Positions 909 through 60,136 are shown, numbered from the stretch's first letter. The stretch is 64,000 nucleotides of DNA from a virus (IMGVR_UViG_2775506840_000002:27928-91927), one strand, 5' to 3'. Numbers and translations are program-made. The notes: generated by a model from the letters alone, not told the origin.

Positions 909-913
909 AATTA

Positions 914-5112: not shown

Positions 5113-5490
5113 CTACTCTAAAACGTACTTGAATCTTAGCCCTTTACTTTTTATGTATCCATCACGGTTTCTTATTGCATTTCTTATTGTTTTACTGCTT
5201 ATAAAGTTATCTTCTGCTGCAGTTTCTGCATCATCGTACTTATCAATAACCTCTCCTGTTTCGTAATCAATTTGAGCAACCCTATAATTACATAATGGTC
5301 TATTAGGACCATCTGCATATGCAAATCTAAGATGTTTATTATTTAGCTTACCGCTATTCTTTACAATGGCGTTTGTAACATCTACTCTAAATAATCCAAA
5401 CTTCTCAAGAGCCTCTTTCATACTTCCATATGTTTCAACAACTTCTCCAGTTTCAAAATCTAGTTGATTAAGCCTTCTTACCATTGGCAT
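5113..5490 (-). CDS. Tandem NUMOD1-like DNA-binding protein
   Basis: Two QxDxETGEVxxxY repeats; paralog of 55566..55940. Confidence 0.6.
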   Translation of the reverse strand: MPMVRRLNQLDFETGEVVETYGSMKEALEKFGLFRVDVTNAIVKNSGKLNNKHLRFAYADGPNRPLCNYRVAQIDYETGEVIDKYDDAETAAEDNFISSKTIRNAIRNRDGYIKSKGLRFKYVLE

Positions 5491-15701: not shown

Positions 15702-16226
15702 GTGATTTGCTTGAATGAATATGAAATTTTATTGCACAAAAGTTCTAAAGAAGGACTTGAAGTATTTGAAATGGCTTTGGAATCAGATTCTGATGCATTA
15801 TGTGTTGGTGATACATTAGCCTTAAATACAAGACTATTAAGTACAGTACCCGAAAAAAGATGTACTTTAAGTGAGGAAGTCTGGCATAGCAAAACAACTG
15901 TTGGAAATATAATTGATACTCGTGACATTAATAATCTAAAACAAGAATGTTTTGCACGAAAGTGTTCTTTTGAAGATTTAATTCCGCTTGATAACATTGT
16001 GCAAGCATTACTTAATCACTGCTTAAATTTACAAGATGTATGTGAGTACCTGTGTGTAACAGAAAAGTACTTCTGTGAAGCAATTGCTTACTATAAGCAA
16101 AAATATGGTCCATATTATAGATGTAAAGAATACACATTACATTTTGAACCTTTGTCAGTTATAGGTTCATCAAAAGGAGATGGTTTAAATGACAGCAGCT
16201 CTTTATATTCGAGTAAGTACAGATGA
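15702..16226 (+). CDS. ImmA/IrrE-like antirepressor protease
   Basis: EKRCTLSEEVWH...KQE..AR; located between repressor and integrase. Confidence 0.75.
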   Translation: MICLNEYEILLHKSSKEGLEVFEMALESDSDALCVGDTLALNTRLLSTVPEKRCTLSEEVWHSKTTVGNIIDTRDINNLKQECFARKCSFEDLIPLDNIVQALLNHCLNLQDVCEYLCVTEKYFCEAIAYYKQKYGPYYRCKEYTLHFEPLSVIGSSKGDGLNDSSSLYSSKYR

Positions 16227-24057: not shown

Positions 24058-25290
24058 CTATCTTATGCCATTTTTTAATTGTTGTATTTTTCTTGCACAG
24101 TTAATTATCAATTTAGGTACATTATTAGGTTTTATTTTATCTTTATCTTTCCATACGCTTAATGTATTTACTACACCTTCTTGATTTAGTACTTTAAGTG
24201 CTTCTTGATATTCATCTTTAGCTTGAACTTTAGTCTCTTCAACTTCTTTCATCATTCTAAGCAAATCATGTCCATATGTAGCACTTGGACACCAGTTGCC
24301 ACCTAATGCTTCTACTGTTGGCGCTTCACCTTTAAGATAACTAAAGTGCCTTGGATCAAGTGTGTTTGACTTAGGATATCCATTAACACCCGCATAAAGT
24401 GCTAGATGATCTATATGTGCCTTAATACCATCTTCCCATGTATCAAAACGTTTGTGTGCTTCTGCAATGGTGCAATCATCTTTACCTGATGCAGTTTCTT
24501 TTAATCCACATGGATTTCTGTAGGTTTCATCTAACACGCCTCCAAACTTACCATAGCCTGTTTCCTTGGTATACTGAACAATAGCTACTACTGGATTAAT
24601 GCCTACTTTAAGACATTCTTTAAAGTAAATAGATAGATTATCAATAAAAATCTGTTTTGGCTTCTTAACAATTGCCCACTCTTGACACTGTTCTAATGTT
24701 GCTGTAGCTGGACCAATAATAGGTGTGCCTCCTACGTTGCTAGTGCCTAACACTTTTAAGATTCCTTCTCCTATACCTCTACCCATTAACTTACGTTCTT
24801 CAGATGTATCAATAATTTCAACATCCTTTGAATCAATAAAAGCACACTCCACAATAACAGCTGGCATACTTGTTTGCCTAATCACTCCAAAATAATCATG
24901 TCCCGCATCATTTACTTTTGTATATATTTCTTTAGGACGCTTATTTTGGCCAGTAACTTGATTAATTGAGTCAACTATCTCTTGTGCCATCTTTAAACTT
25001 GTACCACCAGTTACACTATAAATAACTTCTACGCCATCACCCCCTCCTGCATTGGTATGTATAGAGATAAAAAGAGCTGCTTTATGCTTGTTAGCAAATG
25101 CAACTCTTTCATTAATACTTACAGTTTTATCTGTGTCTCTAGTTTGCAATACTTGAATTCCTTTAGACTCTAGATACTCTTTGCAAAACTTGCTAATACT
25201 AGATACTAAATCTTTTTCTTTTAGTCCGTTAGCACATGCTCCTGGATCAGAACCTCCATGCCCTGGGTCTAATACAACTAATCTACTCAT
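24058..25290 (-). CDS. Endolysin (Amidase_3 + glucosaminidase)
   Basis: DPGHGG, SIHTNA, VECAF; KETGYG, NPCGLK. Confidence 0.9.
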   Translation of the reverse strand: MSRLVVLDPGHGGSDPGACANGLKEKDLVSSISKFCKEYLESKGIQVLQTRDTDKTVSINERVAFANKHKAALFISIHTNAGGGDGVEVIYSVTGGTSLKMAQEIVDSINQVTGQNKRPKEIYTKVNDAGHDYFGVIRQTSMPAVIVECAFIDSKDVEIIDTSEERKLMGRGIGEGILKVLGTSNVGGTPIIGPATATLEQCQEWAIVKKPKQIFIDNLSIYFKECLKVGINPVVAIVQYTKETGYGKFGGVLDETYRNPCGLKETASGKDDCTIAEAHKRFDTWEDGIKAHIDHLALYAGVNGYPKSNTLDPRHFSYLKGEAPTVEALGGNWCPSATYGHDLLRMMKEVEETKVQAKDEYQEALKVLNQEGVVNTLSVWKDKDKIKPNNVPKLIINCARKIQQLKNGIR

Positions 25291-27400: not shown

Positions 27401-27991
27401 CTATCCCATTACCTTAAAGAATATTTTTCTAGATACTGCATTTGTTGTACTCGTTCCTACTTTTATTGAATCTCCTGGATCTCCTTTTTCGCCTTTAGCA
27501 CCTGTTGCCCCTGGGTCTCCTTTTGGTCCTTGTGCGCCTGTTGCCCCCGGATCTCCTTTTGGTCCTTGTGCGCCCTGTGCTCCAGTTGTTCCTCTAAAGT
27601 TTCCTCTTTTAGTCCAAGTTGTAGATGCTGTTTTTTCAAATACATCTCCATTAGATGTATTCAGTGCCCAATCTCCTACTACACCTAATGATGTAGCTGG
27701 TGTACCAGTAACATTATGCATTTTAGATCCTGTAACTCCAGCTGGACCTTGTGCTCCTGTTTCTCCTCTTGGACCTTGTGGGCCTGCTGCACCTGTAGGG
27801 CCTTGTGGACCTATTGCTCCCGTTGTCCCCTTAGGACCCGTTAATTTACCTGCATTTAACTTTTGCTGAAAAGTTTCTCCATCTGAAAAAGTTACACAAT
27901 CTGCTGACGTTAATACATCTACTCCTTCAATAACTTCGCCAGTACTTTCATCTATCAATTGTACCCTTACTTTTTTTAATACTTCTGCCAT
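27401..27991 (-). CDS. Collagen-like tail protein
   Basis: Gly-X-Y repeats. Confidence 0.8.
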   Translation of the reverse strand: MAEVLKKVRVQLIDESTGEVIEGVDVLTSADCVTFSDGETFQQKLNAGKLTGPKGTTGAIGPQGPTGAAGPQGPRGETGAQGPAGVTGSKMHNVTGTPATSLGVVGDWALNTSNGDVFEKTASTTWTKRGNFRGTTGAQGAQGPKGDPGATGAQGPKGDPGATGAKGEKGDPGDSIKVGTSTTNAVSRKIFFKVMG

Positions 27992-41513: not shown

Positions 41514-43229
41514 TCACCTCCTTATCATTTCTAAATAGTCACTTTTAAACTTGCTCAATGTTGCGTATGCTATGATAAATCCAAGGCTACCATCAATCCT
41601 GTTCTTACTTTGTCCTTGTACCTTAACAGGCATAATTAATCCTAAGTTATTTGTCTTATAGGAAGTATTTTTTAAACACCATCTATCAATCTCATGATTG
41701 TTATAGACAAGGCGTTTCGCTTTAAGGTCTGCCTCTACAATACGCATAGGCCCTGATAATTGTAAGAAATCCATATTAATACGCTCTAATATACCTTCTC
41801 CAAAATGGCTAGCCATAAGCTTTTTAAAGTCAGTAGCATGCCAGTTGTCATACCCCACTTTAAATGGAAGCATACCATAATCTTTATAGAGACTATAAAA
41901 CCATTGGACAATGTATGTAGCATCTACCTCGCTACCAGGACAAATGGTTACCAATCCTTTTGATTCCCACTTTCTATAATTCTTCTTCTCTGGATTGAGG
42001 TCGTTATCTTCTAGTATTGCATCTGCTTTTTCTTCACAAATGAAATACATCGTAAGGGTTTCCACCTTCATGGTTAATGGATCTATAAATAAAGCTTTGG
42101 CATTACATAAATCTGTTGTCTCTGCATAATCTAAGGACCCTATATACATCTGTCCCCTATACTTCTCAGGATCAAACATTTCTGTATTGGTGTATTCAGC
42201 TTCAGATAGCCATGCACTTGAAGCATTTTGCTTGATATTAAAGTCTTTGGCTAATACAAAGGCCCTTGTACTATTGTCCGTTTTGGCCTCTTCTATCATT
42301 TGTCGCATAAAGGACCATTTCTTAATAGTGCCTATCCCTGGATTGCTCTTAGCCCATGACTTTTCATCTTGCCATACTTCTTCTTCACTATCTTGTGTGT
42401 AAAGCCAAATAAGCCAACGTGGTCTATCCAGTTCACCTTTTAATACTTTTCTAGCATCTATAAGCCTTTTATCAAGGTAGCCATCATAAGTAAATCCTTC
42501 TGTTGTTAATTCAAAGTATAGAGGTTCATCCTGTGTAGAAAGTGCCTGGCGAATAGGCATAACTGTCTTATCATCTAACATTTCAAATACTTCATCTACT
42601 GCACCAATCCCTATATTCCTACCTTCTTTAGCACCTGTTTTAGCTGATAGCTTTCGGATATTGCCTTTATTTTGATAGCTGAACTTTCCTTTTTTGGTCT
42701 TTTGCTTTGGATTACCAAAGTAAATCCCTTTTATATTTTTTCTTGTACACTTTGCAAGACTCCTACTTTCCTCACGCATAGCATTAATTGCCTGGAACAT
42801 GAGATCTGCTTGCTCATAGTCATTACTTGCACAAAGCACCTTTTTACCTTCTTCACCACAAAACCATTCAGACAAGCATATTGCTCCTATAAGCGGTGTC
42901 TTACCATTCTTTCTTCCAACTAAAAAAAGTATGTCTTGATATTTCCTAACATACTTCTCCAACTCTTCATCATATATTTTGATTGCAAAAATAGCTTCTA
43001 TAAAAGCCTTTTGCCATAGCATCAGCTTGAATGGTTTGCCAGCATGTGGCGCTTCATAATGCTTGCATTCTTTTTCTATGAATTGTATCCGCTTATCTGA
43101 AGCCTTGTAATCTTTTTGGACAAATGGATTGTTCAAGTCCTCCATAAGCATTTCTAACTGGCTCATTAACTCCTTGCCTATAATACAATTTCCTGATTTA
43201 CATTCCTTGTAATATGCTTCTATCCACAT
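41514..43229 (-). CDS. Terminase large subunit
   Basis: GRKNGKT, VDE, KSNP, YDNW, RIDG. Confidence 0.93.
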   Translation of the reverse strand: MWIEAYYKECKSGNCIIGKELMSQLEMLMEDLNNPFVQKDYKASDKRIQFIEKECKHYEAPHAGKPFKLMLWQKAFIEAIFAIKIYDEELEKYVRKYQDILFLVGRKNGKTPLIGAICLSEWFCGEEGKKVLCASNDYEQADLMFQAINAMREESRSLAKCTRKNIKGIYFGNPKQKTKKGKFSYQNKGNIRKLSAKTGAKEGRNIGIGAVDEVFEMLDDKTVMPIRQALSTQDEPLYFELTTEGFTYDGYLDKRLIDARKVLKGELDRPRWLIWLYTQDSEEEVWQDEKSWAKSNPGIGTIKKWSFMRQMIEEAKTDNSTRAFVLAKDFNIKQNASSAWLSEAEYTNTEMFDPEKYRGQMYIGSLDYAETTDLCNAKALFIDPLTMKVETLTMYFICEEKADAILEDNDLNPEKKNYRKWESKGLVTICPGSEVDATYIVQWFYSLYKDYGMLPFKVGYDNWHATDFKKLMASHFGEGILERINMDFLQLSGPMRIVEADLKAKRLVYNNHEIDRWCLKNTSYKTNNLGLIMPVKVQGQSKNRIDGSLGFIIAYATLSKFKSDYLEMIRR

Positions 43230-45131: not shown

Positions 45132-45770
45132 TTAAATGCGATTTTTCTTTCTCCTTTCAGTTAAGTTATCCATCTTCTTAATAGAACGTTTTCTAAGTAC
45201 TTTATTAAGTCCTAAATACTTAGCTGTTTCAGTAGGTGATACATGCCCAGCGTAGTTCTGTGCTTCGGCTAAGTCATTATCTTTTTCATAGACCATTGTA
45301 ATACTAGTCTTTCTAAGAACATGTGTTGCCATATCATAAATTCCTACTGCAGCACCTGCTGTTTTTAACCTTCTATTGGCTTGTGAATAAGATAAAGGTA
45401 CATTTCTATCTCTAGGACTTGGAAATAAGTATTCACTATTTGATTTACCATATGTATACTCTTTAAAGATTCTTTTTAAATCCGGATGTATATCTATCTC
45501 TCTTGGAGGCTTGGGTTGCCTTGGCCTTTTCTTACCTTCTTTTAAATCCTTTTTATGCAACCTACTCAGATACTTTGTTTTGCCCTCTTCAATTACAAGC
45601 GTATCGCCTCTTACGTCTCTCACTGTTAGCTGTAAAACATCACCTATTCTAAAGGCTGTATAAAGCATAATAGATGAAAGAACGTAAATCATTATGTCGT
45701 TTTCTTCTAAGTAGTCTAATAGCCTAAATAATTGCCTTTCATTATCTATGGGTTCAGTTCTTCTTCCTAT
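45132..45770 (-). CDS. Small tyrosine recombinase (ATA start)
   Basis: RIGD, K, HVLR, GH, Y catalytic set; in-frame N-terminus GRRTEPI from ATA 45770 with GAAAGG RBS. Confidence 0.8.
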   Translation of the reverse strand: MGRRTEPIDNERQLFRLLDYLEENDIMIYVLSSIMLYTAFRIGDVLQLTVRDVRGDTLVIEEGKTKYLSRLHKKDLKEGKKRPRQPKPPREIDIHPDLKRIFKEYTYGKSNSEYLFPSPRDRNVPLSYSQANRRLKTAGAAVGIYDMATHVLRKTSITMVYEKDNDLAEAQNYAGHVSPTETAKYLGLNKVLRKRSIKKMDNLTERRKKNRI

Positions 45771-45785
45771 GCTCTCACAACCTTT

Positions 45786-46541
45786 CTAATAATTTGTAAT
45801 GATTAGCTCTCTATATTCTTTTCTAGCCTTTTGCTCTTTGGATATTGAATAGGATACTTGTACTTCTTCTATGTTAAAATCTTTGTACCATTCCCTTACT
45901 TTAGGATGGTCGTTGATTGTAACCATAAATTTACCTTTTATCTGAGATAATGTATCCCTTAACAAAAGATGCTCTTGCTCTCCAAACTCATTCCCATAAC
46001 CTGCAGTTTCAAAATAAGGTGGATCACAAAAGAAAAAGCTGTGAGGTCTATCATATCTTTTGATAATATCCTCAAAGCTTTTATTCTCAACATATGTATT
46101 TCTAAGTCTTTCTTTTATATTACCTAGTACGCCTTGATAATATATCTGTGGCGCTGGCTTACTGGTTGTTCCATAACCAAAGGTTTCACCCTTACTCGCA
46201 AAACTTTGTGAGATGAGATAGAGAAAGCGTACTGCTCTTTGAATCTCTGTAAGATATTCAACTGTACAGTGCTTATACTCTTCAAACATATCTCTACCAG
46301 AAAACTCATACTCTAATACTCTTTCTATTTCTGGTGCGTGATACTTGATCATACGGAACATATTGATAAGTTCTTTGTCAATGTCATTAATCACTTCAAC
46401 TTTACTAGGTTCTTTGCCAAAGTATACCCATCCAGCTCCAAAGAACGGCTCTACATAACAAATATGTTCAGGTATTCTTTTTATAATTGTTTTTCTTAAT
46501 TTTGATTTCCCTCCCATTCTAGGGATTGGTGGTTTCATCAT
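45786..46541 (-). CDS. D12-class DNA adenine methyltransferase
   Basis: MGGKS, EPFFGAG, DPPY. Confidence 0.9.
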   Translation of the reverse strand: MMKPPIPRMGGKSKLRKTIIKRIPEHICYVEPFFGAGWVYFGKEPSKVEVINDIDKELINMFRMIKYHAPEIERVLEYEFSGRDMFEEYKHCTVEYLTEIQRAVRFLYLISQSFASKGETFGYGTTSKPAPQIYYQGVLGNIKERLRNTYVENKSFEDIIKRYDRPHSFFFCDPPYFETAGYGNEFGEQEHLLLRDTLSQIKGKFMVTINDHPKVREWYKDFNIEEVQVSYSISKEQKARKEYRELIITNY

Positions 46542-47649: not shown

Positions 47650-48288
47650 TTAAACTTGTTCATATCGTCTCTTTTTCCATTCTTGTCTTGCCCAATTTGT
47701 ATTTCTTATTTTACCTAACGCCTTGTTTTTGCTATGTATAGTTTTCTTTAACTCCATACAATACATATCTGCAATCTCACTTATTCCTATGCATTCACCA
47801 TCCCATCCAAAATTAAGTTTTATAATAGTATTTTCTATTAATGTTAAGTTTCTACTCATGATATTTTCCAATGCTTCTCTAACTTCTTCGTAATATATAG
47901 ATTTCTCTACATATTCAAACTTGTTATACCTATCCTCTAAAGTATCTTCTATTTTAAGCCCTTCATCATTAATAGTCATTTGCAAACTTACTTCTTCATT
48001 AGTATTTTTTTGCTCAATAAATCTAGCCATCTTTTTATAAATCCAATATATAGCATATGTCATAAATTTAGCTTTCTTAGGATTATCAAAATCATATCTA
48101 TTACAAGCATCCATTAGGCCAATGTATCCCTCTTGGATCAAATCATCTATATCTATTGAGTTAGTTTTACCTATGTAAAATTTACTGGCTAGCTTACACA
48201 CTATATTCTCATTCTGCCTTATAATATCTTCTAGGATATTCAATTCTCCTTGTTGATACCTAAGAACTAATTCTTCATTATTTGTCAT
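47650..48288 (-). CDS. Phage-encoded sigma-70 family factor
   Basis: DLIQEGYIGL..A..RYD, F.TYA..WI, region 4 HTH. Confidence 0.85.
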   Translation of the reverse strand: MTNNEELVLRYQQGELNILEDIIRQNENIVCKLASKFYIGKTNSIDIDDLIQEGYIGLMDACNRYDFDNPKKAKFMTYAIYWIYKKMARFIEQKNTNEEVSLQMTINDEGLKIEDTLEDRYNKFEYVEKSIYYEEVREALENIMSRNLTLIENTIIKLNFGWDGECIGISEIADMYCMELKKTIHSKNKALGKIRNTNWARQEWKKRRYEQV

Positions 48289-48862: not shown

Positions 48863-49156
48863 TTAGTCCTCATCAAAGAAGCTTGCAGCTTCAACTAAAT
48901 CATTATCCTCTTCTTTATCCTTCTGTTTCACTTGAAGTATTGGTTGAAAATCTTCAAGATACTTCTTAACAATTTTTTCTATCCTGGTATCCAAGTCTTT
49001 TTCACTTGTTAGTACTCTTCTTTCTTCCATCATTTCTTTTCTAATACAGTAACGGATAAATTCTGATTTATTCCCATTGCATTTAGATTTCACATACTCA
49101 TGGAGCTCTGGATCATTATCAAATCCAACTGGAACGATATCTCTTGATTTGCTCAC
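48863..49156 (-). CDS. ParR-like RHH adaptor
   Basis: NKSEFIRYCIR; acidic tail; overlaps parM stop. Confidence 0.65.
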   Translation of the reverse strand: MSKSRDIVPVGFDNDPELHEYVKSKCNGNKSEFIRYCIRKEMMEERRVLTSEKDLDTRIEKIVKKYLEDFQPILQVKQKDKEEDNDLVEAASFFDED

Positions 49157-50076
49157 TTAAACTTCACCTTCCCTATTTCAAGGAACCCTGCAACATTTGT
49201 CCATTGTGTTTCCTCGACCGTCTGTACGTGTGGGATTACTTCTTTAAGTGCCTCTTTAACCAATAGGCTTGTCCCACCAGTAACAACAATATCCATTAAA
49301 TCTAAAGGGAACTCCTTCTTTAAGTCTGCAACAACTTCCTGTACATACCCCTTATAGATTTCACTTAATGCCTTTTGACTTTCTGGTTCAATCTTCCCTT
49401 GATACTTAATACCACCATTTGAAATGATATCTTCTATATCTCTTGAAGTAAGTCCTCGCTTATACATTGCTTCAAATTTCCTCTTAATCATTGCTTCTAT
49501 CTGCATAGACCCTTGATTAGTTGTCATCATAGAACTTGGTTGAGGTATTAGATTGTCGTAAATGCCAAAGTTCATATTCCTTCCACCTAGATCTATAACG
49601 CCGACTCTCTTGCCTACAAAAAGTTCTTTGTTGGTATAAACTACTCCTGATGATTCAGGCATAATTAAAACTCTAGTAAATTGGATATTTTGATACTTCC
49701 CATCTACTACAAATTTCTTTGGTTGCTCTTTGATATTCTCTTGAAATGCCTTTCTATTATCTTTACTCAAATAGATATTAGTTGGGCATCCAATAACAGC
49801 CGCTATTTCACCTTTGCATCCTAATCTATATGCTGCTGTATATATGGCTAACTTGTGAAGTAATGTGTTCTTTTCAAGGCTATAATCTACTTGCTCGCCT
49901 TGATCTCCAATAATATATGTATCTTCTTCATAAATCACTTTATTGCTATTCCCAGTTGCTTCAATATCTAGGCTGGATGTAAGTTGTGTACTCTTTGTTC
50001 TAAATAGAGTTTTCTCTCCACTTGCTCCTAACCCCTTTGTTGCATGCTTTCCTGCATCGATTGCTATTACTTTCAT
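49153..50076 (-). CDS. ParM/StbA actin-like ATPase
   Basis: IDAG..TK, PES, IDLGG, VTGG. Confidence 0.85.
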   Translation of the reverse strand: MKVIAIDAGKHATKGLGASGEKTLFRTKSTQLTSSLDIEATGNSNKVIYEEDTYIIGDQGEQVDYSLEKNTLLHKLAIYTAAYRLGCKGEIAAVIGCPTNIYLSKDNRKAFQENIKEQPKKFVVDGKYQNIQFTRVLIMPESSGVVYTNKELFVGKRVGVIDLGGRNMNFGIYDNLIPQPSSMMTTNQGSMQIEAMIKRKFEAMYKRGLTSRDIEDIISNGGIKYQGKIEPESQKALSEIYKGYVQEVVADLKKEFPLDLMDIVVTGGTSLLVKEALKEVIPHVQTVEETQWTNVAGFLEIGKVKFK

Positions 50077-50101
50077 CCTAATCCCTCCAAATTTCATAAT
50101 T

Positions 50102-50202: not shown

Positions 50203-50616
50203 CTAGAATGGTAAGTCATCATCTTCTCCTATATCTGGTGTTGGGCATTCACTTAATGTTTGAGTATTACTTGAAGTTGGCGTCCCTTCTTCAACTGATT
50301 TCTTACTCTCTGCAAAATGTTGCTCTTCAACTACAACATCAACTGATGTATGTGTGATGCCATCTTTATCCCATCTGTTCGTTTGAAGTCTGCCTACTAC
50401 TGATACCATTTGGCCCTTCCTAAAGAACTTCTCTGCAAATTCTCCAGCTTTACCAAATGCTACAATATTGAAGAAGTCAACATCTGGTTCGCCTTGCTTT
50501 ACAAATTGTTTTCTAACCGCTAGCCCATATCTTACTACTGCAACTGGATTAGCTGACTGTGAGTATCTAACTTCTGGATCACGTGTTAAGCGTCCCATTA
50601 AAATCACTTTATTCAT
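50203..50616 (-). CDS. ssb: Single-stranded DNA-binding protein
   Basis: MNKVILMGRLTRDPE...DDDLPF. Confidence 0.95.
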   Translation of the reverse strand: MNKVILMGRLTRDPEVRYSQSANPVAVVRYGLAVRKQFVKQGEPDVDFFNIVAFGKAGEFAEKFFRKGQMVSVVGRLQTNRWDKDGITHTSVDVVVEEQHFAESKKSVEEGTPTSSNTQTLSECPTPDIGEDDDLPF

Positions 50617-50815
50617 GTCTAAACTTTCCTCCTATTATGTACTCTTGAGATCTCATCTTTTTTCTATGTTGGTAATCTGCAAATGCTTTATCAAACATCC
50701 TGCGTTGCTCTTTTTGTTTAAGCTCTTCAGCGCGCTTCTGTTTTTCAATGACTTGTGCTGCTATCCTTTGTTGTGTATTCATCGTTATACCCTCCATACT
50801 TCTAGCCAAAAGCAA
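50609..50815 (-). CDS. Hypothetical phage protein
   Basis: Overlaps ssb start; true start probably MNTQQ. Confidence 0.5.
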   Translation of the reverse strand: MLLARSMEGITMNTQQRIAAQVIEKQKRAEELKQKEQRRMFDKAFADYQHRKKMRSQEYIIGGKFRHE

Positions 50816-51192
50816 ATTTTATTCATTAATTCATTATTTGATATTGATTTTCATTTTCTATTATGGTATTATTATTTTGACATGATTAATACATATTTTT
50901 TAACATTTTCCCTCCCGATTTCGGGAAGCACTAGCTCCAACTAGTGCTTATTTTTTTGCCCACTTAAAATCAATTTTTATTTAATGTATATATCTAAATA
51001 CTTTTACACAAAATATTAATGGATCTTAATTAATCAATTGTCCTAACACCCTTATAATTTATTTATCTAGAGTGATCTAGCCTGGTATCCTCCTTAGGTC
51101 ACTCTATACATATCTTAACGTTTTTATTTAATTCTTACTTTTCACTGTGTTATACTAAAACTCTAAACCATCCATAAAATAGGGGGAATTTT

Positions 51193-51429
51193 ATGTCTAT
51201 ATTTTTAATAATCTGTGGTATTATTTTTATTTCTTTAACTCCAGTAGTGAGTAATTTAGTACTACCAGCTCTTGGTATACTACTTATAGCACTATCTATT
51301 GTTATAAAGAATCAAAAAACACTTATCGTTAAAAGTGATATCATCATAGAACATCTAAAGTTAAATCGTTCTCTACTAGAGGTAACGTCAGATAGTTCTA
51401 CTAATAATATCTTAGATAACGAAGTCTAA
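51193..51429 (+). CDS. Small membrane protein (moron)
   Basis: Two TM segments, TG-n-TATACT promoter, terminator 51441-51465. Confidence 0.65.
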   Translation: MSIFLIICGIIFISLTPVVSNLVLPALGILLIALSIVIKNQKTLIVKSDIIIEHLKLNRSLLEVTSDSSTNNILDNEV

Positions 51430-51487
51430 AGTACTTAAGCGCCATCCTACTGGATGGTGTTTTTTATTCAAAAACTAATTTTATTGA

Positions 51488-52285
51488 CTACTCTTCAAAC
51501 ATACTGCACTGATTTTCTAGTGGCTTTTCTTTACATTTGCCTATCCACCATTCCATTACATCTTCTCCAGTTTGCCATGTTGTGTTATTATCTAAGTTCT
51601 TAATCATTCTGTTAAATGCTCTTATGTAATTTTCTTTGTACTTAGGATACATCTCTAATTCTTTTTCCTGGTTGCTACTTAAAGGACACCCTATACAACC
51701 TATTCTAGTAAAGCCCTGGTCGTACAGTTCACAGTATGGCTTTTTGTATTTCTTTAGAAATTCCCATACATCTTCATCTGTCCAGTCTATAATAGGTCGT
51801 ACCATTACTTTGCCTTTCCAAAAGCTAACCATACTAAGCTTTTTCCTATTATTGCTTTCTGACCATCTTACGCCAACAAGCACAGTGTCACCTACATTAC
51901 CTACATTTTCTTTTAACTCTTCACAACAATACCTCTGCATCCTTGTAGGTGGTTGTTTTTTACTAGATATCAAATTAAATATAGTTTTAGGCCTACCTTC
52001 CATAGTCCCCTTTACTTGTCTTTTGGTAAATACATTGCATTTTCTTTCTATAACATCCGGATAGTACTTTCTTCTAAACCTAATCAGCTCTGGTGGATCG
52101 GGCGTTGGTGCAACTTCTGCTCTGAATTTAACCCCTGCCATTTCCGCCAAATGATATACTACTTGACTATCCTTACCTCCACTAAAGGCTAATAAGTAAC
52201 CTTCTTGTGGTTCAAATTCTTGCAATCTTTTTATTGCTATATCAACTTTATTTATTTCTCCAAATAATGTATGTTCAACTAACAC
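51488..52285 (-). CDS. PAPS reductase-family protein
   Basis: AFSGGKDS, RYCC..LK, GVRWSES..R, RIGCIGCP. Confidence 0.88.
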   Translation of the reverse strand: MLVEHTLFGEINKVDIAIKRLQEFEPQEGYLLAFSGGKDSQVVYHLAEMAGVKFRAEVAPTPDPPELIRFRRKYYPDVIERKCNVFTKRQVKGTMEGRPKTIFNLISSKKQPPTRMQRYCCEELKENVGNVGDTVLVGVRWSESNNRKKLSMVSFWKGKVMVRPIIDWTDEDVWEFLKKYKKPYCELYDQGFTRIGCIGCPLSSNQEKELEMYPKYKENYIRAFNRMIKNLDNNTTWQTGEDVMEWWIGKCKEKPLENQCSMFEE

Positions 52286-52493
52286 TCATACCACCTAATT
52301 CAACTCGTATTGCCTAAGTTGAATTAAGTTAAATCGTTATCTACCAATCTCAGTCATGGTGTGAGCCTAATGCTCTACAGTGGGGATTTTTACGCCTTTA
52401 CCACATATCTTTTTTCATAGCTAGATACATGGCTAGTGTTCTAGCTACTATGGCAACCTTAATAAGTTAAGGTCCTGGTACGGTGTTATGCTT

Positions 52494-52775
52494 CTATATT
52501 TCAATTAGTTCAGTTTCTTTAAATCTTACACTTAGAATTTCTGCATTAAGGTAAGGTCTATAGTCATAGTCCATGTTGTATTCTATTATGTATGCTTTAA
52601 GTGCTGCTCTAGCTTCATTCTCACTAAGTGCTCTTACTTCCCACGTTTGTTTCTTCCAGTTTCCTCTTATGGTATTGTAAGAGAACTCTATTTGGTACAC
52701 ATTAATTTCTAATCGTGTCTTAATGCTCTTCACAATATCACTTCCTAAAAAAACTATTTTATTTACTCTTGCCAT
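52494..52775 (-). CDS. Hypothetical phage protein
   Basis: ORF; N-terminus runs through a junction motif. Confidence 0.55.
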   Translation of the reverse strand: MARVNKIVFLGSDIVKSIKTRLEINVYQIEFSYNTIRGNWKKQTWEVRALSENEARAALKAYIIEYNMDYDYRPYLNAEILSVRFKETELIEI

Positions 52776-52999
52776 ACAACTTCTACAATGTCATCCTCTT
52801 CAACTTCAAACTCTGGATTATACTCTTTAAGTATTTTTTCAATCTTTTTCTTATCAACAAATAATATCCATTCTTTTTGTTCATCATTGAAATGCATATA
52901 CATTTTGTTTTGTATCTCTCGCTTCAATTCGTCAAATTGCTTCGCCTTATCCCTTAACTCATCAAAATCATTAATGCTAATGGTTACTTTTCCGTCCAT
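52763..52999 (-). CDS. Hypothetical phage protein
   Basis: GAGGAGG RBS next to motif; MDGKVTIS. Confidence 0.6.
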   Translation of the reverse strand: MDGKVTISINDFDELRDKAKQFDELKREIQNKMYMHFNDEQKEWILFVDKKKIEKILKEYNPEFEVEEDDIVEVVWQE

Positions 53000-53026
53000 C
53001 TTCATCCTCCTCAAAGAATTATTTTA

Positions 53027-53263
53027 TTAAAACATTTTTGCTATTTTCATCAGATCTTGAGCTCTTTCCATAGCACTTGGGCACATTGCTTCTATCGTTC
53101 CTAACATGCCAGCTAACGCTATTTCTGATTGTCTCGCTCTTAATCTCCTAATTTCACGTTGTTCATCCTGCAACCTCTTTTGTTCTTCTGTAGGCTCTAC
53201 ATGTGGTCTATTGTTGTATCTCCACCATATGTTCCTGCTATGAATCTTTTTCAATAATGCCAT
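53027..53263 (-). CDS. Hypothetical phage protein
   Basis: GGAGG RBS; stop inside motif. Confidence 0.6.
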   Translation of the reverse strand: MALLKKIHSRNIWWRYNNRPHVEPTEEQKRLQDEQREIRRLRARQSEIALAGMLGTIEAMCPSAMERAQDLMKIAKMF

Positions 53264-53296
53264 GTATTCCTCCAAAAAAATTATTCTATGGAGTTG

Positions 53297-53617
53297 TTAA
53301 GCCCCATATTTTAAATTTCTTTTGTTCTTCATTATTTGTTCGAATGTATTTGCATACTTACAAATTTTTGTATTCTTTGGAAACACCATTTTCACGCTCT
53401 CATGCGAAAAATTAAGCATTTCTTCTGTTATGCCTAACGTGTCCATGTTGATGTAACAATCACCATGTTTACTTTTGCTAACGGCTTCTTCTTTTGTGTA
53501 TAAGCCAACTTTACTTAAATCAGTGTAGTACCCACTACTATTTTTACCCCAAAACAACACATTCTCACTATTGCCCCAGTATCTTAATGCTATTATTAAA
53601 TACTTCTTTTCTTCCAT
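53297..53617 (-). CDS. Hypothetical phage protein
   Basis: LFWG.N..GY..DL..GLYT.EEA motif. Confidence 0.65.
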   Translation of the reverse strand: MEEKKYLIIALRYWGNSENVLFWGKNSSGYYTDLSKVGLYTKEEAVSKSKHGDCYINMDTLGITEEMLNFSHESVKMVFPKNTKICKYANTFEQIMKNKRNLKYGA

Positions 53618-53704
53618 TTGCTCACCCTTTCAAACTTAGATTTGCTTAAATACTTTATACACTTCACCATCTTTGTTATAATGAAAACAAAAAAGGAGAA
53701 CTTT

Positions 53705-54211
53705 ATGAATCAATCAGATAAACTAAACGACTTTTTTACTTCTAATCCTGAGGCATACTCTAAATTTAAATCTTCTATGGAAAACTTTTATTATGAACCT
53801 CAAATAAACATTCCTGATTATACTAAAAACATCAAACTAGCCCCCAGTATTGCAGAGCGTGAAGCTGCTGCTGATAATCGCAATACAGAGTTGATGGCAG
53901 AAATAAGCTCTGGTAATGATCGCCTAGTTCAGCAATTAGAAATAGCTAATCTATCTTTAAATGAAATGAATACTACTTTAAAGTCTCAACTTAATAGTGC
54001 TAATACTACACTTAACATGGTCCTTAGTTCCATAGGTCACAATTCACAGCTAACTCATAGACAACTTATAGAAATGAATAAATCAGTCGCTGAACTTAAA
54101 ACTCTAATAGAGATTGGTGATTCTGAAGGTGTAAATAAGTTCATTGCTGACCATGGATTAGAAAGTTTAGCTTTAGTCCTTCAAGTAATTTCTATGTGTT
54201 TTGGTGCTTAG
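53705..54211 (+). CDS. Coiled-coil moron protein
   Basis: TG-n-TATAAT promoter, AAGGAG RBS, hairpin after stop. Confidence 0.65.
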   Translation: MNQSDKLNDFFTSNPEAYSKFKSSMENFYYEPQINIPDYTKNIKLAPSIAEREAAADNRNTELMAEISSGNDRLVQQLEIANLSLNEMNTTLKSQLNSANTTLNMVLSSIGHNSQLTHRQLIEMNKSVAELKTLIEIGDSEGVNKFIADHGLESLALVLQVISMCFGA

Positions 54212-54351
54212 AAACTAATGAGGGTTAATTCCCTCAACTAGCTTCTATAAAAAATTGATTTTATTACTCTATTTGAATTTTTCTTTAAACTACCGTATAA
54301 TTTATTTATCAACTCTATCCAGTTGAAATATAAAAGAAAGGCGGTACTAAT

Positions 54352-54540
54352 ATGAAAGCTACTGAACTTCAACAACAAATAGCTAAAGAACTTTGTCTTA
54401 AAATGCTTGAAAAAGGTGAGTATGCTGAGTTCTATCGTGGAGATCTTGATGAAATCTCATACAACACTCAAACAGGTCATAATATTGGCACACTCTATCA
54501 AGCTATTTTATCTAAAGTTTGTGCCACTGAAACTATTTAG
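54352..54540 (+). CDS. Small moron protein
   Basis: TTGAAT/TATAAT promoter, AGAAAGGCGG RBS. Confidence 0.6.
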   Translation: MKATELQQQIAKELCLKMLEKGEYAEFYRGDLDEISYNTQTGHNIGTLYQAILSKVCATETI

Positions 54541-54707
54541 TAATTTCTAAGCTCTCTATATGTTTCAGTTAGCTTACTAATTGCATTTAATGTCTCTGGA
54601 ATAGCTGCAACTACTTCTGGAGACATTTGCTTTTCATCTAATTCCTTCTGAATCTATTCACAACTTTTACAAATTGTTTGTTTAAGATTTTCTTTTACTT
54701 CTCTCAT
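54537..54707 (-). pseudogene. Small ORF with in-frame TAG at 54654-54656
   Basis: MREVKENL...CE*IQKEL...ELRNY; AAGGA RBS. Confidence 0.5.
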
Positions 54708-54737
54708 TTTTATCATCCTTCCAATAGTTAATTTGTC

Positions 54738-54953
54738 TTAGTCCCATTCCCCATAATTAGGGCAACTGGTACATTCGGATTTATTCTTAGTACACTCTTC
54801 ACAATCTAGTTCTTCACGTTCATGGATGTACCCAGTGTTACCGCAATTACGGCATGTAGCTTTATCTGCTATTTTTCTGAATCCTATTGTTACATCTTCT
54901 TCTAGATCTATCTCCTTAGAATTGCATTTAACACATTGTATAAATCTAACCAT
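54738..54953 (-). CDS. Cys-rich zinc finger protein
   Basis: Four CxxC. Confidence 0.6.
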   Translation of the reverse strand: MVRFIQCVKCNSKEIDLEEDVTIGFRKIADKATCRNCGNTGYIHEREELDCEECTKNKSECTSCPNYGEWD

Positions 54954-54973
54954 CTTCTCACCTTCTAACTTAT

Positions 54974-55204
54974 CTAGATTCTTACTGGTATACCCTCAAG
55001 GTCATATCCTGATGCAATTACTTCTGCTGATTCATTACGACTCTCTATCCAACATCTACCACTTTCATTTCTGAATCTTACATCAGTCCATTCACCATCA
55101 ATATTAACTTCCACTTTATCCATATCACGTAAGCCTTGTAATACCCATAAGTCCATTTCCAGTATCCCGTATGTGTATAATTTCCCATTACGCCCTAGAT
55201 ACAT
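54974..55204 (-). CDS. Hypothetical protein (DUF5348-like)
   Basis: EV.IDGEW..VR motif. Confidence 0.55.
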   Translation of the reverse strand: MYLGRNGKLYTYGILEMDLWVLQGLRDMDKVEVNIDGEWTDVRFRNESGRCWIESRNESAEVIASGYDLEGIPVRI

Positions 55205-55227
55205 GCCATCCCTCCTATCCTTTTGTT

Positions 55228-55503
55228 TTACTCAATTTTCATCTGCCCCGGCATAATTGCCATGAGCTTTTTGATATCTGTAACAGGCTTATAAAATTTA
55301 TTAGCCCCTTCTATATAATCTATTTCTATCAATCCATGACTTTTAAGATTTCTAATATATCTATCTGTGTTATTCTTCATGCATCCAAGTTCTTTAACTA
55401 ACTGTGAAGATGTACAAGGTTTTACTAGGAGTATGAGGATAATTCTGTATTCTGTTGCCTTTAATTTGCATTTTGCTAAATAGTTATAATACTGCTTATC
55501 CAT
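55228..55503 (-). CDS. Winged-helix regulator
   Basis: T.SQL..ELG....T.RYI..LK..GLI. Confidence 0.75.
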   Translation of the reverse strand: MDKQYYNYLAKCKLKATEYRIILILLVKPCTSSQLVKELGCMKNNTDRYIRNLKSHGLIEIDYIEGANKFYKPVTDIKKLMAIMPGQMKIE

Positions 55504-55516
55504 ACTTTCTCCTTAG

Positions 55517-55556
55517 TTAGTCTTTTTTGACTAATCAATTAGTCTGTTTAGACTAA
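55517..55556. promoter_or_regulatory. Two palindromic operators TTAGTC-N6-GACTAA
   Basis: 55517-55534 and 55539-55556, directly upstream of the wHTH gene. Confidence 0.7.
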
Positions 55557-55565
55557 TCTTGCTTA

Positions 55566-55940
55566 TCATCCCAACATGTATTTAAATCTCATTCCAAGAC
55601 TTGGTACAAATCCATTCCTTGTCCTAATAGCTATACCTATTGTCTTTTCTGTTACATAATGTTCTATAGCTGCTTGCTCTGCACTGTTGTATACTTTTAC
55701 AACTTCACCTGCATCATTTAATTTTCCAACTTGGTATCTTTGAAGTGGTTTATTTACACCATCACCATATCTAAACCATAGTTTTTTATCTGGGAACTTT
55801 CCATCGTGCCCCATAAATGCTAGTCTCATTTTTGCCCTATCTATTCCGTGCTCTTCTAATGCCTCTTTGACAGTTCTATATCTCTTAATCACTTCACCTG
55901 TCTCATAATCTAGTTGTTCAAACTCTCTGATTTTACCCAT
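55566..55940 (-). CDS. Tandem NUMOD1-like protein
   Basis: Paralog of 5113..5490. Confidence 0.6.
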   Translation of the reverse strand: MGKIREFEQLDYETGEVIKRYRTVKEALEEHGIDRAKMRLAFMGHDGKFPDKKLWFRYGDGVNKPLQRYQVGKLNDAGEVVKVYNSAEQAAIEHYVTEKTIGIAIRTRNGFVPSLGMRFKYMLG

Positions 55941-56432: not shown

Positions 56433-57080
56433 CTATGCTCCTATGTTCTCTAATACATCTTTAACTTTCGCCATACCACGTTGAGCAACCTCTATAGGTT
56501 GTTTCTCATAGTGTTCTTCGTATGTAATATATGCAACTGCTTGTTCTTTTGGTTTTTGTAATAATGACATTTGCTCATGAATACCAATACTAAGTACTTG
56601 CTCTGCTTGTCTGCGTTTATTAATGCTCTTCATAGTTCTATAAAAATGTGCTCTATCTGCTTCAAGATTTTCACTCGCACATAACTCTGCCCATCCTCCC
56701 ATTGCTTTTATAGCTTGTACAACCTCTTCTGGTAATGATGCTAAGGCTTCGTTTACTCTTGCATATCCATAATTACGAATTGCTCGCTGCACCATGCCCC
56801 AAGCATCTGTCTCATCAATTTCCGGACCATTAATAACTTCTGCACATGCTTTTCTTATTTTTGCTATGTTTGGATAAAATTCTTCTTGTGCTATAAGTTT
56901 ATGGATACCAACCTTAAGAACATTCATAGGAATATCACTTAGGCTTTCGTACCAAAATCTCAACATATTCTTATCATTTAAATCAAAGTCCCAATTAGGA
57001 TAGTTGCTTTTAAGTCCTGCCATAAGCGAGGAAAACTCAACTCTTAATTGTTTGTCATCTGTAGCATCAAATTGACTCAT
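56433..57080 (-). CDS. Helicase loader/inhibitor (G39P-like)
   Basis: W...L.DI....F.P.IA.IR, EAWG.V..AI..YG. Confidence 0.75.
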   Translation of the reverse strand: MSQFDATDDKQLRVEFSSLMAGLKSNYPNWDFDLNDKNMLRFWYESLSDIPMNVLKVGIHKLIAQEEFYPNIAKIRKACAEVINGPEIDETDAWGMVQRAIRNYGYARVNEALASLPEEVVQAIKAMGGWAELCASENLEADRAHFYRTMKSINKRRQAEQVLSIGIHEQMSLLQKPKEQAVAYITYEEHYEKQPIEVAQRGMAKVKDVLENIGA

Positions 57081-58103
57081 TTAAAAATCACCATCCCCAT
57101 TTATAAATTCTTGCATCCCCTTAGACATTAACTGGCTTGTCACCGTTCCAACAGATGCTTTTAAACTATTGTCATACTGTCCTTCTAAAATTGCTATAGC
57201 TTGATTTTCTCGCATGATCCAGTCAAAGTTTGCTTTCCACTCCTTCTTACGACCTGCTAAGAAATCACTGGATTCTGTTTTGTAAAACAAGGTTCTTAGT
57301 ATATCAATATCACCATTTGCATATTTCCACATTGTTCGCATAGCCTTTTTACGTTTATCACTGACCTGCTGTACTTGAGGGAGTGATATGCAAATCTTGT
57401 TATATTCAAAAATGATATCCTCATACGGTACTTGTGTGCGTCGTGTGCGCTCTGGCTCGATAGAGCCACTATTGTGTGTACTCTCCTGTGTAGTCTTTTG
57501 TTTAGTCTCCTGGTAATCTACTGAGTAATCTACTGATAATGGAAATGCCCTTTCGGCACTTACGTAAGTTCCCTTTGGTTCTGTACGTAAGTTACCATTG
57601 GCACCATCCGTAAGTTCCCTTTGTTCATCTCCGTAAGTGCCCTTTGGTAACTTACGTAAAACACCTTTGGGAACTTCCGTAGAATCGCTTTTTGTTGCCC
57701 AATTTGTTAAAACTTGATCTAGAAGTTCATTGTTTCTTTGATAGAAAGTTAACCCTTTAACCCTATCTCGGTAAGACAAGTAATACATGCCTTCAAACTT
57801 ATCACTAGCCTGGTCATACTCCTTTTTACTTACATAAGTAATACCTATCTTAGAAAATGCATTTTTAAATTCCTTTTTGCTAAACCCTATCTCTTCTAGC
57901 CATGCATCACCTGGTGCATAACTTGGATGTTCACATCCTTCAAGGAACTTATAGAAGTTTCTTCCGTTTGTTTTTGAGAACCAATACTCAAGCTGAACCA
58001 TAAGCAAACTTGCTGTAACTGATTTGGTAAGGGTATTAAGTTCTGGATAATAAGGTATTGCTCTTGATACATTTGCTAATATCAAGCTTTTCATTTCAGC
58101 CAT
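57081..58103 (-). CDS. Replication initiator
   Basis: Internal iterons; C-terminal FL.G...WKANFDW....ILEG.Y. Confidence 0.8.
   Translation of the reverse strand: MAEMKSLILANVSRAIPYYPELNTLTKSVTASLLMVQLEYWFSKTNGRNFYKFLEGCEHPSYAPGDAWLEEIGFSKKEFKNAFSKIGITYVSKKEYDQASDKFEGMYYLSYRDRVKGLTFYQRNNELLDQVLTNWATKSDSTEVPKGVLRKLPKGTYGDEQRELTDGANGNLRTEPKGTYVSAERAFPLSVDYSVDYQETKQKTTQESTHNSGSIEPERTRRTQVPYEDIIFEYNKICISLPQVQQVSDKRKKAMRTMWKYANGDIDILRTLFYKTESSDFLAGRKKEWKANFDWIMRENQAIAILEGQYDNSLKASVGTVTSQLMSKGMQEFINGDGDF
57540..57700. repeat. Seven 23-bp iterons (phage origin)
   Basis: CGTAAGT.CCCTTTGG core at 57540, 57563, 57586, 57609, 57632, 57655, 57678. Confidence 0.8.
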
Positions 58104-59552: not shown

Positions 59553-59659
59553 GTCATTTATTATGACTTTATAGTACGTCATTTTAAATGACATGTCAAT
59601 AGCTTTTCTAAAAAATGTTTTATTTAATGACATTTATAGATTTAGTCATTAATAATGAC
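59553..59659. promoter_or_regulatory. Operator cluster GTCA-N7-TGAC
   Basis: 59553, 59578, 59617 (partial), 59645, plus 59330. Confidence 0.75.
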
Positions 59660-59710
59660 TATACTTTATATATAAAAACATCAATACTTTATCAGAATTG
59701 GAGGATAAAT

Positions 59711-60136
59711 ATGGAAGTGACTAGTAGTGAGTTTGCCTTAAGACTAAAAGAACTCCGTAAAGAAAATAATATTACACAACTAGAGCTTTCAAAGAAACTA
59801 GGTATAGTACGTACCGCTATTACCAATTATGAAACTGGTAGGACTATGCCAGATCCAATAACATTAAACGCGCTTGCCAAAATATTTAATGTGTCATTAG
59901 ATTATCTTATGGGTGAAACAAATACCCGTAATTATATTGACCTTGATCACATTAAGCCTGCATCTGTTAAGGAAAAAGTTTCTTATGATGAGTTCATGAA
60001 AACAGCAAAAGCTTTCTTTATGGATGCATCTGATGAAGATCGTGAAGCAATCACCAGAGATATTTCAAATTTATACTGGGAAAGTAAACAAATTAATAAG
60101 ACAAAATATGCTCCACGTAAAAAAAAAAATAGTTAA
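59711..60136 (+). CDS. CI/ImmR-like repressor
   Basis: HTH RLKELRKE..ITQ..; GGAGG RBS before 59711. Confidence 0.88.
   Translation: MEVTSSEFALRLKELRKENNITQLELSKKLGIVRTAITNYETGRTMPDPITLNALAKIFNVSLDYLMGETNTRNYIDLDHIKPASVKEKVSYDEFMKTAKAFFMDASDEDREAITRDISNLYWESKQINKTKYAPRKKKNS

Follow-up and report, generated by a model that had tools for sequence, protein, structure and literature searches.

Promoter early stem-loops (PeSLs) mediate homologous shuffling in T4-type phages, for which the cited passages identify no dedicated enzyme and in which mini-circles have been shown (PMC2839356; PMC4122927). The modular theory of phage evolution proposed short conserved boundary sequences as the points of exchange, and the same passages point out that no such sequences can be detected at the majority of mosaic boundaries (PMC3029335, PMC2327257); phage recombinases are described there as acting on short or diverged homology (PMC2327257). 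Cluster K mycobacteriophages carry start-associated sequences (SAS), which are G+C-rich, 13 bp long and contain the Shine-Dalgarno (SD) sequence, and for which a role in translation has been suggested, while the stoperators of cluster A mycobacteriophages are named in the same source (PMC3203893). The subject of the present analysis is an array of 16-bp A/T linkers in a stretch of viral DNA of 64,000 nucleotides (the window), which corresponds to bases 27928-91927 of a 91,927-base IMG/VR provirus record (IMGVR_UViG_2775506840_000002). The array extends from 50808 to 54738 of the window, and comparison with related loci points to a family of gut-type Firmicute prophages with a row of gene slots and ordered 16-base linkers, at which single genes appear to be swapped.

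Linker motif, slot order and block edges

The first-pass annotation of the window had described eight 19-bp sites, all in one orientation, as the borders of an integron-like cassette array. All eight strings are present where they were placed, on the plus strand, and the element common to them is a 16-mer made up of AAAA (positions 1-4), five variable bases, TTTT (positions 10-13) and ATT (positions 14-16), usually preceded by a C; the conserved part is 16 bp of A/T and no conservation is seen outside the 16-mer. The arrays of six relatives that have no cassette in common with the window supplied 35 copies as the training set for a position matrix, matches were counted from a threshold of at least 12 bits, and expectations were taken from first-order Markov simulations per region. 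The window contains 15 matches on the plus strand and one on the minus strand, and 12 of the 15 fall into two clusters, 523-3371 and 50808-54265. Seven matches lie between 50700 and 54800 against 0.08 expected (seven were reached in 0 of 1000 simulations) and five between 400 and 3500 against 0.08 in local Markov simulations; the remaining 47 kb (3501-50699) hold two against 0.73 expected (P 0.18). The enrichment that the annotation had proposed to look for with such a matrix is thus found. Six of its sites (50964, 51468, 52746, 53011, 53273 and 54248) pass the matrix; those at 53630 and 54721 do not, and represent two further linker classes, each of them conserved and present at junctions of other arrays. 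Copies that it lacked are the one at 50808 and the whole second array (523, 853, 1040, 1387 and 3356). Several of the counts given below derive from a strict regular expression which fixes TTTTAT and which decayed copies escape.

The annotation had also cautioned that this is an AT-rich motif in AT-rich DNA, and the 8-mer ATTTTATT does occur in the whole window as often as base composition alone would have it, 16 times against a zero-order expectation of about 16. A regular expression for the motif finds zero copies in the first 27.9 kb of the record, however, and unrelated AT-rich phage loci of similar G+C content hold zero to one copy (L017, L031, L009) or a strand-symmetric three plus three (L084). 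The local enrichment and these controls mean that base composition does not explain the motif. Together with the strand bias and an order of variants that is kept 221 times to one (see below), they already refute the reading of the motif as a chance pattern of AT-rich intergenic DNA, which retains almost no probability.

The linkers differ in their 5-nt core, and the variants follow one another in a fixed order. This runs AAAAGCAAATTTTATT, AAAATCAATTTTTATT, (AAAAACATTTTTTATT), AAAAACTAATTTTATT, AAAAAACTATTTTATT, AAAGAAYTATTTTATT, (CAAGAATKATTTTATC), AAAAAATTATTTTATT, the AAACTTAGATTT class, AAAAATTATTTTTATY, (AAAAKTTACTTTTATT), AAAAATTGATTTTATT and the CAAAAGTTAATTT class. The order was scored on 98 copies in 17 arrays, which are not all independent, two poly-lysogenic genomes having contributed many of them. 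Pairs of exact 16-mers present in both arrays under comparison agree in order 221 times and disagree once, where shuffled orders give a mean of 111 concordant pairs and a maximum of 154; the 10 less-related arrays yield 117 concordant pairs versus one discordant. The linker variants are slot-specific and not interchangeable, which is the main new result: the core differs by slot and the order is the same in all arrays, so each linker serves as an address.

What stands between the addresses changes from array to array. The slot between linkers V2 and V4 (V2>V4) holds nine content types in 11 arrays, V4>V5 eight in 12 and V5>V6 nine in 10, with inserts between a given linker pair of 105-1262 nt whose longest open reading frame (ORF) lies on either strand. 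BLASTP at E<0.05 across types adds only marginal short matches (E 0.002-0.05), and the one strong exception (94% over 50 aa, L094 versus L100, in V2>V4) is a sub-cassette common to composite contents and no divergent orthologue; the slot contents are therefore not fast-evolving orthologues. Identical cassettes are found between the same linkers with unrelated neighbours. The cassette at 1039-1401 in the left prophage of the window (prophage A) occupies the V4>V5 slot in three arrays and is 97.5% identical to an early-region cassette of the relative L003/L100, and that at 52763-53014 occupies the V5>V6 slot in two arrays, at 98% identity in L092, where the neighbours on both sides are unrelated.

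Where two arrays resemble each other, the similarity tends to stop at a linker. An all-against-all blastn comparison of 12 array regions (the two arrays of the window and 10 relatives' loci) gave 95 internal ends of high-scoring segment pairs, 47 of them within array spans. A strict linker is no more than 5 nt away in both sequences for 20 of these 47 and in a single sequence for 12, some of the partners in the latter being degenerate linker copies, whereas 4-8% of positions would be that close by chance. In all 20 two-sided cases identity extends through the 16-mer and breaks off past its outer edge, also around plus-strand morons with non-coding flanks, and in two informative cases (L092 at 5173 versus L096 at 575, and L091 at 4916 versus the window at 50966) the switch falls inside the 16-mer. 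Between the window and L003 the blocks stop at 50825 and 51485 and resume at 54744. The same borders appear in contigs of four external runs from three other studies (X1-X4), each of which holds parts of the stretch only: contigs of X2, X3 and X4 cover exactly 52748-53028, a contig part at 50975-51112 has linker letters as loose ends on both sides, and in X3 and X4 position 54332 is joined to 54720 over 406 foreign letters. The earlier proposals that the motif bounds exchangeable single-gene units, and that breakpoints between related phages should fall in it, are both upheld by these block ends, shared cassettes and contig breaks.

Anatomy of the linkers and slots

Linker surroundings were classified from ORFs for 71 strict copies in the window and the 10 relatives' loci. 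Read on the minus strand, the typical copy has the form stop (TAA or TAG), 5'-(T)AAUAAAAU-NNN-UUUUUG-GAGG, ending at the SD of the next gene. The linker would be an intercistronic element on the minus strand, which to judge from gene orientation is the strand of the early operon. A minus-strand SD and start lie within 28 nt to the left of 34 of the 71 copies, a minus-strand stop lies at -9 to +11 of the linker end in 35, and 21 copies have both a stop and an SD; nine come after a T-run or terminator. The 19 copies with no adjacent minus-strand start, stop or T-run mostly flank plus-strand morons, as in L100. Among the linkers of the window, those at 52748, 53013 and 53275 are stop-SD junctions proper, those at 50808, 53632 and 54722 lie 5' of an SD, and those at 50966, 51470 and 54250 come after a hairpin with a T-run. 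Three of the nine adjoin both a hairpin and a promoter-like site; the others are stop-SD junctions with neither.

This anatomy retains most of the unit described in the first-pass annotation. Five minus-strand genes are co-oriented, lack promoter-like sites and have their SD or stop at the motif, and three plus-strand genes have promoter-like sites of their own, although such sites as a class are not above expectation in the array (17 versus 19.6 in shuffles); the morons also have terminator-like sites. A strict rule of one unit per interval does not hold, since 50966-51470 contains two units and 51470-52748 two genes and 208 nt of non-coding DNA. In several morons the final TT of the linker continues into a -35-like TTG, and the distance from linker to -35 varies (0, about 10 or about 50 nt). 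A fixed promoter-UP-element reading was rejected because this distance is not constant.

From left to right, with all linkers on the plus strand, the array begins with linker V1 AAAAGCAAATTTTATT (50808-50823), a matrix match to the right of a 68-aa minus-strand gene (50609-50815), at which homology to L100 stops (50825) and homology to L091 begins (50807). The slot V1>V2 (50824-50965, plus strand) is occupied by a non-coding unit made up of a promoter-like site and an RNA of two hairpins that terminates in a T-run; the unit is also present in L091 (97%), L094 (90%) and the runs X2-X4. At 50877-50957 (plus strand) the promoter-like site reads TTGACA-18-TAACAT, and the RNA behind it is 51 nt long (-19 kcal/mol, z -5.8), with a 5' end, UUCCCUCCC, that is complementary to an SD. 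The unit may be a small regulatory RNA with its own slot. Linker V2 AAAATCAATTTTTATT (50966-50981; annotated at 50964) is preceded by a terminator (50926-50949) and is a block edge in comparisons with L091. The slot V2>V4 (50982-51469, plus strand) contains a 140-nt non-coding cassette (50983-51112), then a gene for 78 aa (51193-51429) and its terminator. On the plus strand the 140-nt cassette has a hairpin (-17.6 kcal/mol, z -4.1) with CCUCCU in the loop. In L091, and likewise in contigs of 165 nt from X2-X4, the cassette stands by itself between two linkers; its contig depth is about twice that of its neighbours.

Linker V4 AAAAACTAATTTTATT (51470-51485; annotated at 51468) follows a terminator (51437-51462) and the minus-strand gene 51488-52285 has its stop codon 3 nt further right. 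Position 51485 is where homology to L100 stops and also where a contig of run X1 ends. An identical 19-mer stands at 1038, and the pair 1038/51468 was tried as attL and attR and dropped, the record being two tandem prophages, each with an integrase and an array. The slot V4>V5 (51486-52747, minus strand) holds a PAPS-reductase-like gene (51488-52285), 208 nt of non-coding DNA and a small gene (52494-52775). The non-coding stretch (52286-52493), upstream of the PAPS-reductase-like gene, has a minus-strand fold with z -2.4 and no Rfam match. At linker V5 AAAAAACTATTTTATT (52748-52763; annotated at 52746) the minus strand reads the TAA stop of 52763-53014, a spacer, the SD AGGAAGTGA and the GTG start of the next gene, and the slot V5>V6 (52763-53014, minus strand) is a gene for 83 aa. 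Linker V6 AAAGAATTATTTTATT (53013-53028; annotated at 53011) combines the stop of 53027-53275 with the SD GAGGAGGA of 52763-53014. The diverged copy V8' AAAAAATTATTCTATG (53275-53290; annotated at 53273) is still a matrix match, and on the minus strand it presents the TAG stop of 53297-53617, then the SD GGAGG and then the ATG of 53027-53263. The two promoterless minus-strand cassettes here, 53027-53275 (82 aa) and 53297-53617 (106 aa), have no relative detected in other arrays.

The right part of the array is formed by two plus-strand morons with promoter-like and terminator-like sites, 53705-54211 (168 aa) and 54352-54540 (62 aa). The first is preceded by a linker of class Vx, AAACTTAGATTTG (53632-53645; annotated at 53630), which is under the matrix threshold and has the SD of the minus-strand gene 53297-53617 at its left and the promoter-like site of the moron at its right; the 12-mer of this class, AAACTTAGATTT, occurs at junctions in 10 other loci exactly and in two more with one change. 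Linker V11 AAAAATTGATTTTATT (54250-54265; annotated at 54248), a matrix match, lies between a hairpin (54219-54236) and the promoter-like site TTGAAT-17-TATAAT (54273-54301), and homology to L091 and L097 begins there. The array ends on the right with a decayed linker of class V12, CAATAGTTAATTTGTCT (54722-54738; annotated at 54721), again under the matrix threshold, which abuts the stop of the conserved gene 54738-54953. The class, CAAAAGTTAATTTKTYT, is present in L091, L092 and L097; homology to L100 resumes beyond it at 99.4% identity from 54744 and the contig joint of X3 and X4 is at 54720. Left of this linker a small minus-strand gene (54537-54716) is in two pieces, ORFs of 20 aa and 29 aa, and because of this split appears broken.

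Most cassette proteins match no PHROG, Pfam or PADLOC family, and among ten cassette proteins submitted to PADLOC the PAPS-reductase domain (BrxP/DndC-like) alone rises above noise. The second array of the window, in prophage A (523-3371, plus strand), has linkers at 523, 853, 1040, 1387 and 3356, with orientation and variant order as in the array of the right prophage (prophage B).

Possible routes of cassette exchange

The favoured reading, with a probability of about 0.6, places in the leftward early operon of a temperate phage a row of single-gene slots that are hypervariable and in which swaps take place by linker-mediated homologous exchange and without a dedicated site-specific enzyme. 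The cassettes are of three kinds, minus-strand genes that lack a promoter-like site, plus-strand morons that bring promoter-like and terminator-like sites of their own, and small non-coding units, and each would be replaced by double crossover or annealing between identical linkers of two phages in one cell. General or phage-encoded homologous recombination functions such as RecT of prophage A or host RecA may be the catalyst, and the partners could be brought together by poly-lysogeny, for which the two arrays of the window show the opportunity, or by co-infection. The linkers belong to slots and are unchanged across phages with unrelated backbones, so exchange within the linkers would be the simplest process that preserves them. 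On the early transcript the linker would end the frame of one gene immediately before the ribosome-binding site of the following one, and from this position it is further proposed that the constant arms help to end the frame and present an unstructured A/U-rich lead to the next SD.

A number of points weigh against homologous exchange at the linkers. Sixteen identical bases are very short for RecA-type recombination, and no single-strand annealing protein was identified in prophage B. Exchange is read from contigs and sequence comparisons. Homology alone would leave the constant arms AAAA and TTTTATT unexplained, so that a second function would be needed, and the translational role is inapplicable to 19 of the 71 copies. 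Within the arrays 15 of the 47 block ends lie at no strict linker, and mosaic joints without the motif are found outside the arrays, for example at 56272 and 46559. The 140-nt unit follows V2 in the window and V4 in L091, so exchange is not strictly slot-to-slot. Lastly, 7 of the 13 arrays long enough to judge have on the same contig, 2-9 kb away, a homologue of the small tyrosine recombinase that is considered below.

The strongest competitor, though a rather unlikely one, takes the motif as an expression signal only, that is a start- or stop-associated mRNA element that would tune termination and re-initiation or bind a factor of host or phage, along the lines suggested for SAS, and, for the plus-strand morons, an upstream promoter element. 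Joints would then coincide with linkers because the linker fills the intergenic space and selection removes joints that break genes, and the linker would have no causal part. The position directly 5' of a minus-strand SD in 34 copies and the stop contained in or abutting 35 agree with this, as do the single orientation, the restriction to the non-structural early region, the rarity in the host chromosome outside prophage clusters, the likeness to the pattern given for SAS in the cited section (PMC3203893) and the run of the last TT into a -35-like TTG in several morons. Random joints filtered by selection should however leave ragged edges, yet all 20 two-sided ends lose identity at the edge of the 16-mer, and slot-specific cores are kept between prophages A and B, whose backbones have no common DNA. 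The 19 copies that adjoin no minus-strand start, stop or T-run and the varying distance to the -35 likewise count against an expression signal.

A dedicated site-specific system, either integron-like or a natural form of recombinase-mediated cassette exchange, would have the arms bind a recombinase and the 5-nt core act as the matching overlap. Its geometry of arm, core and arm at fixed spacing (A4 at 1-4, T4 at 10-13, ATT at 14-16) is what such a site might look like, and heterospecific sites would be expected to produce replacement in the same slot with the order kept; Cre/lox and FLP/FRT are controlled by spacer identity. The enzyme considered in the first-pass annotation is a small tyrosine-recombinase-like protein of 186-216 aa (45132-45782, minus strand; 45132-45770 as first annotated) which matches the catalytic domain only of Pfam Phage_integrase, and its R, HxxR, H and Y, aligned to XerA, are plausible active-site residues. 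It reaches no NCBIfam cut-off, however, the best score being 48 bits versus a cut-off of 220, and its gene lies 5 kb from the array with six genes between (68-aa ORF, SSB, actin-like, regulator, sigma and methyltransferase). Six of the 13 arrays have no homologue, namely prophage A, which is complete here, G004, C7, C39 and C47 of G001, and C29 of G050, and the homologues that exist show a mutual identity of 28-96%, whereas these phages have identical linkers. Just 16 bp of A/T are conserved in the linker, and the usual arms of tyrosine or serine recombinase sites are longer than this; one exchange, moreover, joined unlike cores, V2 with V4. A dedicated site-specific system, with this protein as its candidate enzyme, is improbable.

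Nor is the array an integron. In an integron each cassette has its own attC, a site of 57-141 nt, and cassettes are stacked in the order of capture; the fixed order of linkers, kept while the contents change, contradicts capture at a single attI. There is no IntI at the array and no attI adjoining the recombinase-like gene, and the eight window sites, folded as single-stranded DNA stretches of 39 nt, give 0 to -3.1 kcal/mol (z -1.8 to +0.9), with no attC-like fold; the integron-like character first proposed is not supported. An addressable form of cassette exchange, in which the arms would be recognised by the small recombinase or by a 124-aa tandem-helix-turn-helix-like protein and the core would be a heterospecific overlap for like-numbered slots, is given the same low probability as a site-specific system in general. 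If true, it would be the phage-borne counterpart of laboratory recombinase-mediated cassette exchange, with order kept and contents turning over.

The remaining proposal, marginally less probable still, is that the linkers are operator-like sites for a DNA-binding protein which silences or organises the early accessory region in the manner of stoperators. These are asymmetric sites located at stop codons, in one orientation relative to transcription and throughout the genome, which are bound by the immunity repressor. One orientation, overlap with stop codons and the partial dyad symmetry of A4 N5 T4 fit such sites, and the 124-aa protein, with its weak NUMOD1 match, is common to seven otherwise unrelated array-bearing phages. 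Against this, the immunity repressors of prophages A and B are just 25% identical to each other although the linkers are identical, which weakens the operator proposal; the sites lie within about 3-4 kb and not genome-wide, the 124-aa protein is absent from six of the 13 arrays, and binding alone does not predict block edges. Homologous exchange at the linkers is left as the favoured explanation.

Host prophages and described systems

PHROG and Pfam scans show two tandem prophages in the record, each with its own large serine integrase, repressor and replication module, and with a linker array placed between replication genes and late genes. Their limits are approximate: prophage A would be the left part of the record up to about 17,650 and prophage B would extend from about 17,780 to the window end. 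Prophage A encodes a DnaC-like loader (7264-8124), a replication initiator (8033-8929), a RecT-like single-strand annealing protein (9907-10767, minus strand; phrog_148, E 1e-59), an anti-repressor (14068-14790), a repressor (15232-15684) and its large serine integrase (16189-17649). Prophage B encodes an endolysin (24058-25290), large terminase (41514-43229), methyltransferase (45786-46541), sigma factor (47650-48288), an actin-like ParM/Alp protein (49153-50097, minus strand; Pfam ALP_N, E 2e-13) and SSB (50203-50616), and further right replication genes (56433-58103), a repressor (59615-60136) and a serine integrase (from 62342, truncated by the record end). The array described here has the replication genes of B on one side and SSB on the other. 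The actin-like protein and the small tyrosine recombinase of B may serve plasmid-like maintenance or multimer resolution and not cassette exchange. Protein overlap between A and B is confined to the integrase family (27% identity), some tail-fibre-like proteins and the 124-aa protein (44%), which lies at 55566-55940 in B and 5113-5490 in A (minus strand), contains an internal duplication, has a weak NUMOD1-like match (E 0.057) and is found near seven of the 13 arrays.

Elsewhere in prophage B, five direct repeats of 23 nt, which also form an inverted pair, at 57540-57677, inside the replication-initiator gene 57081-58103, are probably its origin iterons. About 14-16 tandem copies of a 99-111-nt unit (22156-23859) lie inside an ORF of 984 aa (20930-23884), and collagen-like 36-nt repeats lie at 27474-27791. 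An Rfam scan of the window at the gathering threshold gave 0 matches.

Relatives are few. Megablast of 50400-55600 against GenBank phages gave no match and distant blastn returned PAPS-reductase genes only; the large-terminase relatives there are all below 40% identity. Scans of IMG/VR with four proteins of the region found one close relative record only (L003/L087-L089 and L003/L100, SSB 96%), and two further IMG/VR proviruses carry the motif (L085/L098 and L086/L099). The exact 19-mer occurs in four IMG/VR loci, of which L083 and L084 look like chance matches in coding DNA. Among genome contigs the actin-like protein has its sole match in Holtiella tumoricola CC70A, on a contig that ends just before the array. 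Co-oriented motif clusters were found in this genome (G001) on at least five contigs and two short ones, and in G050 on five. Within the 47-species family of H. tumoricola CC70A, four genomes contain the exact 17-mer of V4, at 4 + 5 + 1 + 1 = 11 places where a control pattern has 0; the feature is therefore one of the phages of a restricted group of hosts, in which several arrays per cell are common (poly-lysogeny). In the host, genome-wide and at one mismatch, there are 63 motif versus 44 control matches, and all seven exact matches lie inside clusters.

The joints of phage mosaics have been attributed either to random illegitimate recombination followed by selection or to exchange at short conserved linkers. 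The present locus speaks for the linker model with uncommon clarity, at single-gene resolution and in temperate phages of one anaerobic group of Firmicutes: ordered 16-bp addresses are kept in at least 17 arrays of phages with unrelated backbones while the slot contents almost always differ. Linkers of this length could be synthesised, mutated and assayed for exchange, which makes the question testable. The array would also be a defined place for accessory genes of fast turnover, possibly with host-takeover or counter-defence functions. No description of such an ordered linker array was found in the open-access literature.

Of the systems described, PeSLs share with these linkers that short conserved motifs surround non-essential ORFans in hyperplastic regions and that joints of insertions, deletions and replacements lie in the motifs; their authors propose homologous recombination between the motifs and themselves draw the comparison with integrons (PMC2839356, PMC4122927). 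Here too the linkers flank ORFans in a hyperplastic region with replacement joints in them, and those at 50966, 51470 and 54250 stand between a terminator hairpin and a promoter-like site. The linker differs in being 16 bp of A/T with neither promoter hexamers nor a G+C-rich stem, and most copies are intercistronic in an operon read from the opposite strand, in temperate Firmicute phages; slot-specific colinear variants are not described for PeSLs in the cited passages. The boundary sequences of the modular theory, as presented in the sources cited above, likewise involve homologous recombination at short sequences between modules, which yields mosaics with joints at gene borders, whereas the linkers here occupy nearly every border of an array of 9-11 slots, with single-gene resolution and ordered variants.

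In their placement the linkers resemble SAS, which are short asymmetric repeats in one orientation, located in the non-structural half of the genome by gene starts, sometimes with an upstream stop, accompanying genes from various families and all but absent from the host genome (PMC3203893). The linker is A/T-only, however, and lies 5' of the SD instead of containing it; 34 of 71 copies are at a start and 19 have no adjacent gene start or stop, and the cited section describes neither an exchange role nor a slot order for SAS (PMC3203893). Integron arrays are similar in their mostly single-gene, largely promoterless and co-oriented units bounded by a recurring site, and in having cassettes common to unrelated elements. 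Here IntI, attI and a folding attC are absent, the sites are tied to the slot and not to the cassette, the order is fixed, and some units lie on the other strand with their own promoter-like sites. Unlike stoperators, the linkers do not extend beyond 3-4 kb, and phages with repressors of 25% identity have them in common. By analogy the array would work most like PeSLs and the classical boundary sequences, while its placement resembles SAS; what sets it apart from all of these is the combination of a 16-bp A/T element, location at junctions of an operon on the opposite strand, temperate Firmicute phages as carriers and an ordered set of addresses.

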